DNA from: a virus
DNA: 64,000 bases
Virus record (IMG/VR): IMGVR_UViG_3300046694_000196
Span: 32,001-96,000 of that record
Reading direction: 5' to 3' (one strand)
Shown: positions 3,574 to 20,651 of the stretch, in pieces
Layout of the letters: every line of letters begins with the position of its first letter
How positions within the stretch are numbered: position 1 is the stretch's first letter
The notes under the pieces: model-generated
What the model was told of the DNA's origin: nothing
What the model saw: only the letters and a program-made list of their open reading frames with translations
Database searches by the model: none
Program-made: the position numbers and the translations under genes

Positions 3574-4758
3574 ATGAACGCAATGACTTGGTCCTCTATC
3601 GTCCCCCTCATCGGCGGCGAGACCATAGCCATGGAGAGGGTCTTCGGCAACCGCCCAGAAGAACTGCTCTCCTACTCCCCATTCGCTTCTAACGACGCGC
3701 ACATCGTGAACCACTACGACGGCGAGGTCCCCTACCGCCTGATCGACAAGGAAGAGTTCACCCCCCGCCGCGTAGACGTAGTCAACTCGGTCTGCCCCTG
3801 CGCAGGGCTCTCGTCTCTGTCTCCCACTTCCGCTGCGGACTCTAAGGTCAACGAGTGGATGTTCGAGTCGTCGAAATACGTCTTCGAGAACGTCAAGCCG
3901 ACCGTGCTCTGGGGAGAGAACGCCCCCCACTTCGCTACGAACAAGGGCACGCTGATCCGAGAACGGCTGCGAGACATGGCACTCGACCACGGGTACTCCA
4001 TGAGCGTCATGAAGACGAAGTCACTCGTGCACGGCCTGCCCCAGATCAGGACCAGGAGCTTCTACTTCTTCTGGCGAGGCATGGACGCGCCGCTCTTTGA
4101 CTACTACCACCGGCCGCACGTCAAGATAGAAGACCTCATCCGGGGAGTCAAGTCAAACTCCCAGAGAGAAGTCATCGGCCGGGGAAAACCGTCTGACAAC
4201 AAGTACCTCGAGTTCATCCTCGAGCACGTCCGCAGGCAGACTTTCCAGGAGTTCTATGACTCCCTGCAGAAGTCTGAGAGCGTCATCACGATCATCGAGC
4301 AAGAGTCCGACTGGGTCTCGTGCGCTGAGTGGATGGAGTCCAAGGGGTACGACCGCGAGGCCAAGTCGTCACGACGCCGCCAGGCCAAGCTCGACGACAA
4401 CAAGGGCTACATGAAGAAAGACCTGCTGTTCGCGAAGGACTACATCGGCGCGTTCGTCGGGCACCTCCCTCACTCCATCAGGCACCCCGACGAAGACCGC
4501 TTCATCGACTACCGCGAGGCCATGACCATCATGGGGCTCCCCGACGACTTCGAGCTGCTCGACCCGAAGCACAGCTCCAACCACATATGCCAGAACGTCC
4601 CGGTGCAGACCGCGACCGACATGGCCACGGAGGTCCGAGAAGTACTCCTCGGCAACAGGAGGTCCTCGGGGCACAGGTACGTGCTGCAGGACAACGTTCA
4701 CCAGAAAGTAGAAGAGACCCTCTTCCCCTCGAAGACACTCGTAGACTTCGCTGTCTGA
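3574..4758 (+). CDS. DNA cytosine-C5 methyltransferase (atypical motif I)
   Basis: CPCAGLS (motif IV), ENAP (VI), QIRTRSFY (VIII), YREAMTIMGLPDDF...QNVP (IX/X); motif I is PLIGG. Confidence 0.8.
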   Translation: MNAMTWSSIVPLIGGETIAMERVFGNRPEELLSYSPFASNDAHIVNHYDGEVPYRLIDKEEFTPRRVDVVNSVCPCAGLSSLSPTSAADSKVNEWMFESSKYVFENVKPTVLWGENAPHFATNKGTLIRERLRDMALDHGYSMSVMKTKSLVHGLPQIRTRSFYFFWRGMDAPLFDYYHRPHVKIEDLIRGVKSNSQREVIGRGKPSDNKYLEFILEHVRRQTFQEFYDSLQKSESVITIIEQESDWVSCAEWMESKGYDREAKSSRRRQAKLDDNKGYMKKDLLFAKDYIGAFVGHLPHSIRHPDEDRFIDYREAMTIMGLPDDFELLDPKHSSNHICQNVPVQTATDMATEVREVLLGNRRSSGHRYVLQDNVHQKVEETLFPSKTLVDFAV

Positions 4759-15872: not shown

Positions 15873-16135
15873 AGGTCGGCTTGAAGAAGACCGTGGACGT
15901 AGACGTGACCACGATCGACATGTACCTGAAGCTCCGAGACGAGATGGCCTTCCTGCTGAAGGACTCCGACGGAGAGACAGTGCTGGACTACGAGGGCTAC
16001 GTGCCGAACAGCATCATCCCGGGTGAGTTCGGTGACTACATGCACCTGGTCATCGACATCGAGACCGGTCAGATCACCAACTGGAAGAAGCCAACAGCGA
16101 AGGACGTCCAGGACCTGATCGAGGAGAACTCCTGA
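15869..16135 (+). CDS. conserved phage hypothetical protein
   Basis: YEGYVPNSIIPGEFGDYMHLVIDIETGQITNW. Confidence 0.8.
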   Translation: MKVGLKKTVDVDVTTIDMYLKLRDEMAFLLKDSDGETVLDYEGYVPNSIIPGEFGDYMHLVIDIETGQITNWKKPTAKDVQDLIEENS

Positions 16136-16450
16136 TCACTGCGGCGGGCCCGGGTCTTCACTCGGGCCGTCGTCTTTCCCGAAGTCGTACGACCTCTTGA
16201 CGTTCTCGATCTCTTCGCGACCCTTCTGCCAAGACACCGCGCCCAAGATGGCGCCGATCGCCAGGTAGAACGTGCCTGAGCCGTCCATCGTGAGCGGCAC
16301 CCACGGCGCTATAGCTATCCCCGCCTTGATCATCCCCAGTACTATGCTGGGAGCGACCACGAAGTCGAACAGGATGATCACCACGAACGCCCAGGCTATC
16401 GCCGCGCGCCAGTGCTTCACGAATGCGTTCTCTATGTCTCTCTTCTTCAT
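16136..16450 (-). CDS. membrane protein, 3TM holin-like
   Basis: WRAAIAWAFVVIILFDFVVAP...LTMDGSGTFYLAIGAILGAVSW; late promoter GATAAATA at 16462-16455. Confidence 0.65.
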   Translation of the reverse strand: MKKRDIENAFVKHWRAAIAWAFVVIILFDFVVAPSIVLGMIKAGIAIAPWVPLTMDGSGTFYLAIGAILGAVSWQKGREEIENVKRSYDFGKDDGPSEDPGPPQ

Positions 16451-16468
16451 AGGATATTTATCGACTTG

Positions 16469-17956
16469 ATGGAATTTTACACTCACGCTGCCCAGTGGGG
16501 CGGCAAGGTGCGGGTCCGCGGCTGGAAGAACGGCCGCAGGTTCCAGGACTCGATCCCGTACAGGCCCTACCTCTTCACTCGCTCGAAGACGAACGAGCCG
16601 ACGGGTTACGTGACTCTCCGGGACCAGCCAGTCGACCGAGTCCAGTTCGACTCGATCTATGACGCCAAGGAGTTCGTGGAGCGGTACAGAGACGTTCACA
16701 ACTTCGAGGTGTACGGCTCAACTAACTGGCCGTACGCCTACCTCTACGACGTCTACGGCCGCGGCATGGAGTACGATGCCAAGCAGGTCTCGGTCGTCAA
16801 CGTCGACATCGAGGTCGGCGCCGACGAGTTCCCCGACCCGTGGAAGGCCGACTGGCCGATCACGGCAATCACCCTCGAGAAGAACAAGAAGTACGTCTCT
16901 TTCGGCCTGATGCCCTACGTCCCCGCGGACCCCGAAGACGTCTACGTCATGTGCGAGTCCGAGGAGGACATGCTCGAGCGGTTCATCACGGCGTGGCTCA
17001 ACTTCGACCCCGACGTGGTCACGGGATGGAACATCGACTACTTCGACGTGCCCTACCTCGTCAACCGCATCAGGAAGCTCCTGGGTGACGACTACGCTTG
17101 CATGCTGTCTCCCTGGAAGAAGATCAAGGAGAGCACCGTCTTCTACCACGGCTCCAACAAGACGCTTTACGACCTGGTGGGGGTCACCTCCCTGGACTAC
17201 CTCCCCCTCTACAAGAAGTTCTCGTTCTCTAACGAGGAGTCCTACCGCCTCGACAACATCGCGTTCGTGACAATCGGCGAGAAGAAGCTGGACTACTCAG
17301 AGTACGAGTCGCTCAACGACCTCTACAAGAACAACTTCCAGCTGTTCATGGAGTACAACCGTCGCGACGTCGCGCTGGTGTCTAGAATGAACGACAAGCT
17401 CGGGTTCATCGAGCAGGTCTTCGCGATGGCCTACGACACGCTGGTCAACTTCTCAGACACGTTCACGACCGTGAAGTTCTGGGAGATCATCTGCCACAAC
17501 TACCTGCTCGACCAGGGAGTAGTCTCGCCCCAGAAGAAGCACTCCATCAAGGAGAAGCAGATCGCGGGCGGGCACGTCAAGGAGCCTATCACGGGTCGGC
17601 ACGAGTGGGTGGCCTCTTTCGACCTCGACAGCCTCTACCCCCACCTCATCATGCAGTACAACATCAGCCCCGAGACGCTGGTGGACCGCCTGGACGAGCT
17701 CCCGTCTGAAGAAAGCTCAGTGGACCGGATACTCAACGGGTTCATGAACGAGGAGCGACTCGCGCAGCTGCGGGAGGCAGACCTCTCCTTGACGGCCGGA
17801 GGCGCCCTGTACTCGCGAGCGAAGCGGGGCTTCGCGGCGGCCCTCATGGACAAGTTCTACGAGGACCGAAAGAAGTTCAAGGGGATGATGAACGAAGAGA
17901 AGAAGAACCTCGAGGCCATAGAGGCCGAGATGAAGAGACGAGGACTGGCGCTGTGA
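16469..17956 (+). CDS. 43A: family B DNA polymerase, N-terminal half (gp43A: exonuclease + motif A)
   Basis: DIE (ExoI), GWNIDYFDVPY (ExoII), YNRRDV (ExoIII), SFDLDSLYPHLIMQYNISPET (motif A); stops in fingers domain. Confidence 0.95.
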   Translation: MEFYTHAAQWGGKVRVRGWKNGRRFQDSIPYRPYLFTRSKTNEPTGYVTLRDQPVDRVQFDSIYDAKEFVERYRDVHNFEVYGSTNWPYAYLYDVYGRGMEYDAKQVSVVNVDIEVGADEFPDPWKADWPITAITLEKNKKYVSFGLMPYVPADPEDVYVMCESEEDMLERFITAWLNFDPDVVTGWNIDYFDVPYLVNRIRKLLGDDYACMLSPWKKIKESTVFYHGSNKTLYDLVGVTSLDYLPLYKKFSFSNEESYRLDNIAFVTIGEKKLDYSEYESLNDLYKNNFQLFMEYNRRDVALVSRMNDKLGFIEQVFAMAYDTLVNFSDTFTTVKFWEIICHNYLLDQGVVSPQKKHSIKEKQIAGGHVKEPITGRHEWVASFDLDSLYPHLIMQYNISPETLVDRLDELPSEESSVDRILNGFMNEERLAQLREADLSLTAGGALYSRAKRGFAAALMDKFYEDRKKFKGMMNEEKKNLEAIEAEMKRRGLAL

Positions 17957-18195
17957 TAGACGAGAGAATCCTGACGAGGTACGAGGAGATGCTGGGACAC
18001 GGCGAAGTCGCCTGCGAGCCAGAACCCGGAATTTCTCTCGCGCACCTCAGGTGGATGCTCAGAGAGATACGAGACCAGGAAGACGAACTGAAGTCTTCTC
18101 GTTGGCTCGGGTTCGTACAGGGCGTCCTCGTCATGATGGGAGTGACTACCGTCACAGAAGAGAGAAATTTCACACGGTCCTACTTCAGGAGTTAG
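17953..18195 (+). CDS. conserved phage hypothetical protein
   Basis: HLRWML...KSSRWLGFVQGVL. Confidence 0.75.
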   Translation: MIDERILTRYEEMLGHGEVACEPEPGISLAHLRWMLREIRDQEDELKSSRWLGFVQGVLVMMGVTTVTEERNFTRSYFRS

Positions 18196-18197
18196 AC

Positions 18198-18758
18198 ATG
18201 AACGTACTGACAGGCAAGCAGAGAGACATATTCGTCAGCTCAGACCACCACTTCAACCACGCGAACATACTGGGCTTCACGACAGTCGGCGGCAGCAAGT
18301 TCCGGGGCGACCTCTTCGACAGCGTCGAAGAGATGAACGAGGTCATGGTAGAGCGACACAACGCGGTGGTGGGCAGCAATGATATCTGGTACTGTCTTGG
18401 CGACGTTTACTTTGGTCACCGCGATGATGCTGCTAAAATTCTACCTCGACTGAACGGGAAGAAGCGGCTCATCCTGGGTAACCACGACGACGGCAAGTGT
18501 CCCGTCTTGCAACACCACTTCGAGAAGGTCATGCTCTGGCGGTTCTTCAAGGAGTTCGACTGCCTGCTGTCGCACACTCCCCAGCACGAGTCGAACCTCT
18601 ACAAGGTGACGTTCAACGTGCACGGGCACATCCACCAGAACGAGTCACCCTCTCTGAGGCACGTGAACGCCTGCGTCGAGAAGACCGGGTACGCTCCCGT
18701 GAACCTCGAGCAGCTGATGACCGACCACAAGCTGCTCACGCAGGAGACCTTCGGTTGA
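18198..18758 (+). CDS. calcineurin-like metallophosphoesterase
   Basis: SDHHFNH, LGDV, LGNHD, SHTP, VHGHIH. Confidence 0.92.
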   Translation: MNVLTGKQRDIFVSSDHHFNHANILGFTTVGGSKFRGDLFDSVEEMNEVMVERHNAVVGSNDIWYCLGDVYFGHRDDAAKILPRLNGKKRLILGNHDDGKCPVLQHHFEKVMLWRFFKEFDCLLSHTPQHESNLYKVTFNVHGHIHQNESPSLRHVNACVEKTGYAPVNLEQLMTDHKLLTQETFG

Positions 18759-18922
18759 CGCCGCTGACCTACACGCTCATACTCATCCTGTCGTCGAACA
18801 GCACGGTCGGCGGGTACGACACCGTCTCGGCCCCGTTCCGGTCTATGGAACAGTGCACTCTGGCGCAGGCAGACCTCGCAGTTAAGTTCAAGGCGAGGGT
18901 AGTGTTCGCGAAGTGCTATTGA
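18755..18922 (+). CDS. small secreted Cys-pair protein
   Basis: hydrophobic N-terminus, FRSMEQC...KC. Confidence 0.6.
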   Translation: MTPLTYTLILILSSNSTVGGYDTVSAPFRSMEQCTLAQADLAVKFKARVVFAKCY

Positions 18923-18924
18923 CA

Positions 18925-18953
18925 GTTTACATTTCTCGATTTCCTGATATACT
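18925..18953 (+). promoter_or_regulatory. T4-type early promoter for gp43B
   Basis: GTTTAC-N17-TATACT with TG extension. Confidence 0.85.
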
Positions 18954-18978
18954 GTAACTTCAGCTAGGACATACTCCC

Positions 18979-20079
18979 ATCGATTACTCAACTCTCAGCG
19001 ATGCAGAGCTCAGGGCCCTGCGTCAAGAGACCGAAGTAAAGGTCTCCAAGTACCACAACACCCAGCAGGGCAAGAAGATCGCGCTCAACGCATTCTACGG
19101 AGCACAGAGCAACCAGTTCTTCCTGTACTACTCAGACGTCCTCGCAGAGAGCATCACTCTCTCAGGGCAGCTGTCGGTCAAGTGGATCGCCAAGAAGTTC
19201 AACGCGAAGCTCAACGGGGTCCTCAAGACCTCGGGCGTCGACTACGTGCTCATGGTCGATACAGACTCCAACTACCTGTGCCTGGACGCCCTCGTCAAGA
19301 AGGTGTTCCCCGACGGGGCCCCCAAGGAGAAGGTAGTCAACTTCATCGACAAGTTCTGCCGAGAAGTGCTGGCGCCGTTCATTCGAGAGTCCTTCGAGGA
19401 GCTCGCGACGATGATGAACGCGTTCGAGCAGCGGATGTCGATGAAGCGCGAGAACATCGCGGACGTGACGATCATCACGGGCAAGAAGAAGTACATCATG
19501 AACGTGTGGGACTCCGAGGGGGTCAGGTACGAGACGCCCAAGGTCAAGATGACCGGCATAGAGGCAGTGCGCTCCAACACCCCGTTCGTCTGCCGCGAGT
19601 ACATCAAGAAATCGATCGAGATCATCGTGAACGGCACCGAGGAACAGCTCCACGAGTACGTCGCGAAGTGCCGCGAGGCGTTCAACGGCCTCAGGTTCGA
19701 AGAGGTCGGGAAGCCGACGGGCGTCAACGGCATGAAGGACTACGCCGACAAGTACACCGTCTACCGTAAGGGCACCCCGATGCACGTGCGCGCGGCGCTG
19801 CTCTACAACAAGGTCATCAAGGAACAGAAGCTCGACAAGAAGTTCCCGCTGATCAACGACGGCGACAAGATCAAGTACACATACATGAAGGTGCCCAATC
19901 CCCTGCGCGAGAACGTCTTCGCGTGCACCACTTCTCTGCCTTCTGTCCTGAAACTAGAACAGTACATCGATTTCGATACGCAGTTCGCAAAGACCTTCCT
20001 CAGCCCGCTAGAGATCATCCTGAAGGAGATCGGGTGGCACCACGAGAAGCGTCTCTCACTAGAGGAGTTCTTCACATGA
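18979..20079 (+). CDS. 43B: family B DNA polymerase, C-terminal half (gp43B), probable ATC start
   Basis: frame upstream of the track's 19246 start carries motif B KIALNAFYGA; then motif C VDTDS and KKKY; in-frame TAA at 18955; AGGA 9 nt before ATC 18979. Confidence 0.9.
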   Translation: MDYSTLSDAELRALRQETEVKVSKYHNTQQGKKIALNAFYGAQSNQFFLYYSDVLAESITLSGQLSVKWIAKKFNAKLNGVLKTSGVDYVLMVDTDSNYLCLDALVKKVFPDGAPKEKVVNFIDKFCREVLAPFIRESFEELATMMNAFEQRMSMKRENIADVTIITGKKKYIMNVWDSEGVRYETPKVKMTGIEAVRSNTPFVCREYIKKSIEIIVNGTEEQLHEYVAKCREAFNGLRFEEVGKPTGVNGMKDYADKYTVYRKGTPMHVRAALLYNKVIKEQKLDKKFPLINDGDKIKYTYMKVPNPLRENVFACTTSLPSVLKLEQYIDFDTQFAKTFLSPLEIILKEIGWHHEKRLSLEEFFT

Positions 20080-20651
20080 CACATACAGACAAGAACGAAG
20101 ACCGACCGAAGAAGGACTACGGCGACCGCAAGGGCGACTGGCTCCAGACGTACAGCGGCGGCTGTTTCTTCCCGATAGACCCCCGCCCCGAAGACGTCCA
20201 CATCGAGGACATCGCCCACTCGCTGTCCCACCAGTGCAGGTACGCTGGTCACTGCCGTGACTTCTACTCCATCGCAGAGCACTGCTGCCACATCTACGAC
20301 GCCATCGAAGACGAGCACAAGTTCGCGGCCCTGATGCACGACGCATCGGAGGCCTACCTGGTAGACGTCCCGCGACCGGTCAAGCCGTACCTGACGAACT
20401 ACAAGGAGATAGAGGCCCGCATCGAGGAAGTCATCTTCACGAAGTACGGCCTGCCTTTCCCGTTCCACCCGCGCGTCAAAGAGTTCGACAACAACATCAT
20501 AGTGGACGAGAAAGAGGCGCTCATGGCGCCCTGCGACCAGGAGTGGTACCTCATCGGCCTGGCAAAGGTCGGCGCCGTCATAGAGTGCTGGTCACCCGGC
20601 CGGGCCGAGGCAGAGTTCCTGGACCGGTTCCGGAGGCACTGGAGTGAGTGA
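20076..20651 (+). CDS. HD-domain 5'-deoxynucleotidase-like protein
   Basis: IEDIAHSLSHQCRYAGH, YSIAEH, ALMHDASEAYLVD. Confidence 0.88.
   Translation: MTHTDKNEDRPKKDYGDRKGDWLQTYSGGCFFPIDPRPEDVHIEDIAHSLSHQCRYAGHCRDFYSIAEHCCHIYDAIEDEHKFAALMHDASEAYLVDVPRPVKPYLTNYKEIEARIEEVIFTKYGLPFPFHPRVKEFDNNIIVDEKEALMAPCDQEWYLIGLAKVGAVIECWSPGRAEAEFLDRFRRHWSE

Follow-up and report, generated by a model that had tools for sequence, protein, structure and literature searches.

The phage DNA polymerase gp43 is divided between two proteins, 43A and 43B, in the T4-related Aeromonas phages 25 and 44RR (Petrov, Ratnayaka and Karam 2010, as cited in PMC2988022), and the two proteins of phage 25 co-purify and are active (PMC2988022). 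Initiation at ATC has been described for another replication gene, as the dnaA genes of Deinococcus deserti, D. radiodurans and D. geothermalis have an ATC start that was proven by N-terminal proteomics (PMC2830850). In Escherichia coli, AUC initiates translation at 1-2% of the level of AUG, or at 0.02-3% in other constructs, and the resulting protein has an N-terminal Met (bioRxiv 10.1101/063800). Here we describe a stretch of 64,000 nucleotides (nt), hereafter the window, that corresponds to positions 32,001-96,000 of the IMG/VR virus record IMGVR_UViG_3300046694_000196, which belongs to an uncultured phage. It encodes a T4-type DNA polymerase in two genes, 43A and 43B, the second of which probably starts at an ATC codon.

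Two further systems are pertinent to the control of such a gene. The bacterial gene infC, which encodes initiation factor 3 (IF3), has an AUU start that is involved in autoregulation and serves as a model for a weak start with a regulatory role. The gp43 proteins of T4 and RB69 repress their own translation via an operator hairpin and the ribosome-binding site. An earlier reading of the window (the original prediction) had proposed a non-canonical AUC start for the C-terminal half, and had taken as established that split gp43 occurs in some T4-like phages and that AUC is a weak start; the Aeromonas phages and the E. coli measurements cited above bear out both of these premises.

A family B DNA polymerase encoded by two genes

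The phage record has 126,343 bases and a G+C content of 59%, is estimated to be 73% complete and contains T4-like genes. No match was obtained when its DNA was compared by megablast with a cultured-phage collection, which indicates that there is no close relative in culture. The genes and signals of the window described below all lie on the + strand.

The first gene (16469..17956), from an ATG at 16469 to a TGA at 17954-17956, encodes gp43A, a protein of 495 amino acids with the N-terminal domain, the exonuclease and the first part of the polymerase domain. It was assigned by its Pfam matches to DNA_pol_B_exo1 (3e-20) and DNA_pol_B (4.9e-14) and by its similarity to RB69 gp43 (2.6e-68), with residues 157-488 aligned to RB69 186-503. 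Its C-terminus (EAEMKRRGLAL, followed by the stop) lies at the tip of the fingers, the domain in which the original prediction had it end. The second gene (18979..20079) encodes gp43B, of 366 amino acids when counted from the ATC, which contains the second fingers helix with motif B, the palm motif C and the thumb. It matches Pfam DNA_pol_B and RB69 gp43 (1.8e-48), with residues 27-365 aligned to RB69 554-901 (the start corresponding to T4 residue 528), and thus reaches the C-terminus. Since the gp43A match ends at RB69 residue 503 and that of gp43B begins at 554, the alignments put the break between the halves at the fingertip.

Unsplit relatives have 823-857 amino acids and a short fingertip, compared with 861 (495 + 366) for gp43A and gp43B together; both halves bear a short, overlapping fingertip extension and jointly span the whole enzyme. 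Besides these two genes, neither a second family B polymerase nor another C-terminal half of one was found in the 126-kb record, which is 73% complete. The single T4-type family B DNA polymerase of this phage is encoded as two genes, and gp43B would join gp43A non-covalently via the two antiparallel fingers helices. Protein searches retrieved hundreds of free-standing 43B homologues of 366-392 amino acids, many of them with a Met start at the position of the ATC.

A reading frame without a canonical start

The 43B frame is bounded by an in-frame TAA (18955..18957) located upstream of the expected transcript start, is open from 18958 and closes at 20079. Between this TAA and a GTG at 19246 there is no ATG, GTG or TTG in frame. 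The first canonical in-frame codons, GTG 19246 and ATG 19252 (19246..19254), are the ones used by open reading frame (ORF) finders and give a truncated product. Motif B (KIALNAFYGA, 19075..19104), which aligns to RKLLINSLYGA of RB69 and forms the helix that binds deoxynucleoside triphosphates, is upstream of GTG 19246 and hence lost from any canonically started product. Such a protein would have its N-terminus immediately ahead of motif C (DTDS) and, lacking motif B, could not be a polymerase. The public protein call for the contig of the window (P0001) illustrates this, as it starts at ATG 19252, has 275 amino acids, begins with MVDTDS and contains no motif B. The distance from ATC 18979 to GTG 19246 is 267 nt, that is, the 89 codons which the original prediction had reported as missed; its description of the frame, with motif B downstream of TAA 18955 and no earlier ATG, GTG or TTG, was likewise accurate.

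We then scored every open frame of the 126-kb genome with a codon-usage model trained on its long ORFs. Only 43B had a long and strongly coding-like stretch ahead of its first canonical start (96 codons, with a score of 0.91 versus 1.23 for the gene body). As it is the sole such gene in the scan, relaxed start usage is not a genome-wide habit, and we rejected that explanation because no second comparable gene was found.

The ATC codon is conserved in a diverged relative

The closest relative is represented by L001 and L002, IMG/VR contigs from two different metagenomes that are identical over 8972 nt. The 43B gene of L002 shares 80% nucleotide and 79% amino acid identity with that of the window, at a synonymous divergence (dS) of 0.62 and a ratio of nonsynonymous to synonymous divergence (dN/dS) of 0.24. 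Its public call (P0002), the closest protein, is 80% identical, has 324 amino acids and was called from an internal Met, which suggested that this gene too is devoid of a canonical start. Indeed, no canonical start precedes the conserved residues in L002. There, the upstream gene ends in AKCY and a stop, and is followed by TTTACA-N17-TATACT, AAGGA, 8 nt and ATC GAC TAC TCA; its 43A ends with EAEMKKRGILT.

This comparison delimits where coding starts. Upstream of the ATC, the alignment of the window with L002 is broken by an indel of 1 nt that lies between AGGA and ATC and by another of 2 nt within the promoter spacer, so that this sequence is not coding. From codon 2 on, only synonymous or conservative differences were observed, and dN/dS over the first 89 codons counted from the ATC, those that the ORF finder misses, is 0.157. 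Coding therefore begins between the indel and codon 2, and ATC is the only near-cognate codon there. A frameshift from an upstream ATG was also considered and rejected, since the sole nearby out-of-frame ATG (19001) is ACG in L002.

Maximum-likelihood phylogeny places the window and L002 within a clade of seven 43B proteins (support 100/99). Three of the other five members (P0003, P0006 and P0007), which are Met-starting relatives known as protein sequences, begin with Met-Asp exactly at the position of the ATC, and the Met of P0023 aligns there as well. These aligned Met residues point to an ATG that probably became ATC, and the simplest history, as judged from the sequences, is probably one ATG to ATC change in the common ancestor of the window phage and L002. 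The comparison of the start codon in close homologues that the original prediction had suggested gave ATC in L001/L002 and Met-Asp in the three proteins. A metagenome scan for further clade members yielded relatives of 43-45% identity only, and a pattern scan of viral contigs recovered only L001 and L002, both already known. The ATC clade therefore consists of two lineages so far.

Promoter, leader and ribosome-binding site

A promoter of the sigma-70/T4-early type (18926..18953) precedes 43B, with TTTACA at 18926-18931, a 16-nt spacer that includes a TG at 18945-18946 (an extended -10), and TATACT at 18948-18953. It matches the consensus at 10 of 12 positions. The pattern TTTACA-N15-18-TAYANT occurs seven times in the window, always on the + strand, versus 0.02 expected, and nine times in the whole genome, including the 43B copy. 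In the other eight copies, AAGGA, GGAG or AGGAG follows within ~15-30 nt and an ATG 5-8 nt further on; the 43B copy has the same geometry but an ATC where the others have ATG. Both promoter hexamers are identical in L002, whereas the spacer sequence has diverged.

The proposed initiation codon (ATC, 18979..18981) begins 26 nt past the promoter and is preceded, at a distance of 9 nt, by a Shine-Dalgarno core AGGA (18966..18969), which L002 keeps with an 8-nt spacer. Both the AGGA and the consensus early promoter are located where the original prediction had put them. The transcript start is predicted near 18960, which gives a leader of ~19 nt. The region around the start is predicted to lack structure (-1.2 and -0.8 kcal/mol), being less structured than shuffled controls, and no operator-like hairpin was predicted over the ribosome-binding site or the start.

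A hairpin was predicted further down, at 19000-19024 (GCAGAG...CUGC), ~22-46 nt downstream of the ATC, with a counterpart at the same place in L002. Its z-scores are -0.6 in the window and -2.4 in L002, and two sequences are too few for covariation.

Proposed initiation at AUC

We propose that 43B has a promoter and a ribosome-binding site of its own and is translated independently from the AUC at 18979, a reading to which we give a probability of roughly 0.8. This is because the ATC is kept in the diverged L002, a frame-breaking indel lies immediately upstream, the 89 codons are under strong purifying selection and the Met of the homologues aligns to it. Transcription from the promoter at 18926-18953 would give a messenger RNA with a short, unstructured leader carrying the AGGA. 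The 30S subunit would then most likely initiate at the AUC with the initiator formylmethionyl-tRNA, mismatched at the third codon position, and the presumed product would be a protein of 366 amino acids beginning Met-Asp-Tyr-Ser, with Met as the presumed first residue.

IF3 discriminates against near-cognate starts, which are weak, and for this reason the AUC probably lowers the yield of gp43B per transcript; the gene's own promoter may make up for this. The pairing of a weak codon with a dedicated promoter suggests a tuned output of gp43B, a purpose that we infer from this arrangement. By analogy with other near-cognate starts, namely the efficiency of AUC in E. coli given above and the AUU of infC, it is plausible that, as the original prediction held, the stoichiometry or autoregulation of gp43B is set by the AUC. 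A more specific version, in which the AUC would be a selected regulatory device that ties gp43B synthesis to how faithfully the infected cell initiates translation (IF3 activity), is a tentative idea that we consider rather unlikely. If true, the assembly of the two-piece replicase, and thus the onset or rate of replication, would be coupled to the translation state of the host, with a strong promoter offsetting the weak codon.

Alternative explanations

Several points weigh against initiation at the AUC. We observed the anatomy of the gene, its conservation, the selection on its codons and the absence of alternatives, and infer from comparing sequences that the ribosome uses this codon. The ATC is present in two lineages only, and conservation of a single codon is statistically not strong by itself. 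Moreover, the very low efficiency of AUC in E. coli is awkward for a subunit that is needed one-to-one with gp43A. A downstream near-cognate codon might initiate instead, with the ATC left untranslated or internal to the frame. An example between the ATC and motif B is CTG 19018, which is in frame and conserved in L002, and CUG is about equal to AUC as an initiator in E. coli. Yet the Leu at this position is an internal residue conserved across all homologues, and the codon sits inside the predicted hairpin and has no conserved Shine-Dalgarno sequence before it. Furthermore, codons 2-13 show synonymous or conservative change only, the homologues begin exactly at the position of the ATC, and the spacing of the AGGA fits the ATC. 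We thus regard a start at CTG 19018 or a similar codon as improbable.

The need for a separate start would vanish if 43A and 43B were joined at the level of RNA or protein, by a group I intron, trans-splicing or a split intein. Introns are known in phage polymerase genes, and gene 43B of Aeromonas phage 25 is annotated with a group IA2 intron. Nevertheless, an Rfam scan of 16000-20500 at E<=1 gave a chance match to a small nucleolar RNA only, with no intron or other RNA family at E<=0.89, and Pfam finds polymerase domains only, with no intein or Hint domain, both ends abutting fingers homology. The 1022 nt between the halves are filled by three ORFs, two of them with L002 orthologues (71% and 36% identical) and two with matches to PHROG families; no homing endonuclease is found among the conserved genes of the gap, the content of which differs between the window and L002. 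To this may be added the conserved promoter and ribosome-binding site ahead of 43B, the many free-standing homologues with a Met start here and the fact that the two halves, with overlapping fingertip extensions, already amount to the whole unsplit enzyme. The preference of the original prediction for independent halves over splicing is therefore upheld by the sequence analysis, and joining of the two products appears extremely unlikely. An assembly or sequencing error at the ATC, or decay of 43B as a pseudogene in a defective phage, might be suspected in a single metagenome-assembled contig of a record estimated at 73% completeness. However, the codon recurs in a relative whose nucleotide sequence is 20% different and of which two other metagenomes gave identical assemblies, dN/dS is 0.16-0.28 and no other family B polymerase is present in the record; we consider either case highly improbable, including the read error that the original prediction had thought worth checking. 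Splicing and sequencing error are both effectively excluded.

Alternatively, an initiator-like phage tRNA with anticodon GAU could read the AUC, so that gp43B would begin with Ile. The genome encodes 24 tRNAs, among them two tRNA(CAU) and a tRNA-Ile(GAU) in which position 37 is, unusually, a G. Initiator tRNAs have a 1:72 mismatch and G29-31:C39-41 in the anticodon stem. In the tRNA-Ile(GAU) of the phage, by contrast, A1 pairs with U72 and the anticodon stem has C29-31:G39-41, which resembles an ordinary elongator tRNA-Ile. As 43B is, in addition, the only gene without a canonical start, this possibility too is very slight. Initiation with fMet-tRNA at AUC 18979 accounts best for the locus.

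Genes between the halves and further observations

The first ORF of the gap (17953..18195), of 80 amino acids, belongs to a phage family without known function (phrog_7775, 2.2e-22), and its GTG start overlaps the 43A stop (GTGA). It is followed by a gene of the phosphoesterase family of 186 amino acids (18198..18758; phrog_547, 1.5e-43), the orthologue of which, 71% identical, occupies the same place in L002. The third ORF (18755..18922), of 55 amino acids, has a TTG start that overlaps the preceding stop and ends with AKCY; its 36% identical counterpart in L002, also of 55 amino acids, has the same place and C-terminus, and searches of Pfam and PHROG gave no family match for it. On these comparisons, the two to three genes of the gap are real and conserved and represent an old insert. 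The 80-amino acid gene is absent from L002, where the phosphoesterase gene is coupled straight to 43A by a GTGA overlap, which indicates that the gap still gains or loses genes.

The tRNA-Ile(GAU) lies outside the window, at 121886-121960 of the genome, and apart from its G37 has an ordinary elongator cloverleaf; tRNAs for ANN codons normally have an A at position 37, modified to N6-threonylcarbamoyladenosine (t6A). A tRNA with anticodon CUA, which would read the stop codon TAG, is encoded at genome positions 126204-126277, also outside the window. Recoding of TAG by this tRNA was considered and set aside, since in-frame TAG is not widespread and the stop upstream of 43B is a TAA. TAG ends 32 of the 176 long coding-like open frames of the genome; TGA or TAA is the stop of the remaining 144. 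Between tRNA genes at genome positions 114055-114330, likewise outside the window, a small ORF reads GAAGGAA-N7-ATG CTC GCC TAG and then continues in frame as strongly coding-like sequence (PVNAKECVFHF), and is a possible target of the TAG-reading tRNA.

Another split-polymerase lineage is represented by five IMG/VR contigs from different metagenomes that are 17-23% diverged from one another (L007, at ~3985-4015, and also L020, L021, L031 and L040). Its 43B starts with ATG GTT ATG TCA ATC GAT, and a TAG closes the frame immediately past motif B (NSAYGALS). Beyond an 8-nt insert, TAGTTACY, homology (N-A/E-YFRWFD...AESITLSGQ) resumes in the -1/+2 frame. The site of the frame change is identical in all five contigs, the changes downstream of it are synonymous in the new frame, and GCU CUC UCC UAG allows re-pairing of tRNA-Leu at +2. 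From its sequence, the site resembles a programmed frameshift or a short bypass that has been conserved, and it coincides with the codon at which the group I intron of Aeromonas phage 25 is located.

Implications

Well-supported natural AUC starts are very few, and the case of 43B concerns an essential phage replication enzyme in which the codon is kept in two diverged lineages. Standard gene callers cut 42-91 residues from 43B, including the catalytic motif B, and of the two public calls, 275 and 324 amino acids long, one is labelled hypothetical; this has consequences for the annotation of the clade and for phylogenies based on the polymerase. With its short leader, known promoter class and Met-starting close homologues, 43B offers a clean natural system that could reveal how far an abundant stoichiometric subunit can be supplied from a near-cognate start, and whether phages exploit IF3-dependent discrimination of start codons.

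Comparison with known systems

The arrangement described here resembles that of Aeromonas phages 25 and 44RR in that a T4-type family B polymerase is encoded in two cistrons cut at the fingertip, with a 43A of ~495-498 amino acids (498 in phage 25) that ends shortly past the first fingers helix, and an acidic and Leu-rich segment that opens 43B ahead of motif B. What lies between the halves differs, as it is a homing endonuclease in phage 25, an untranslated spacer in 44RR and, here, a phosphoesterase, a PHROG family and the 55-amino acid ORF, followed by a dedicated promoter. In phage 25, moreover, 43B has an ATG after AAGGA and is interrupted just past motif B by a group I intron, whereas here the proposed start is ATC and no intron was detected.

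As in the Deinococcus dnaA genes, a replication gene is devoid of a canonical start, ATC is conserved among relatives and re-annotation yields a conserved N-terminus. Unlike 43B, which is a phage gene known from sequence, dnaA is a cellular gene with proof by N-terminal mass spectrometry. The near-cognate AUH start of 43B would, like that of infC, be subject to discrimination by IF3, but no feedback loop is evident for gp43B. 43B would share with T4 and RB69 gp43 the condition of a polymerase gene with controlled translation initiation and differs from them in its leader, which is predicted to be unstructured and without an operator-like hairpin. Split gp43 and AUC starts were each already known; what is new in this phage is a conserved AUC start combined with a different, promoter-bearing cassette.

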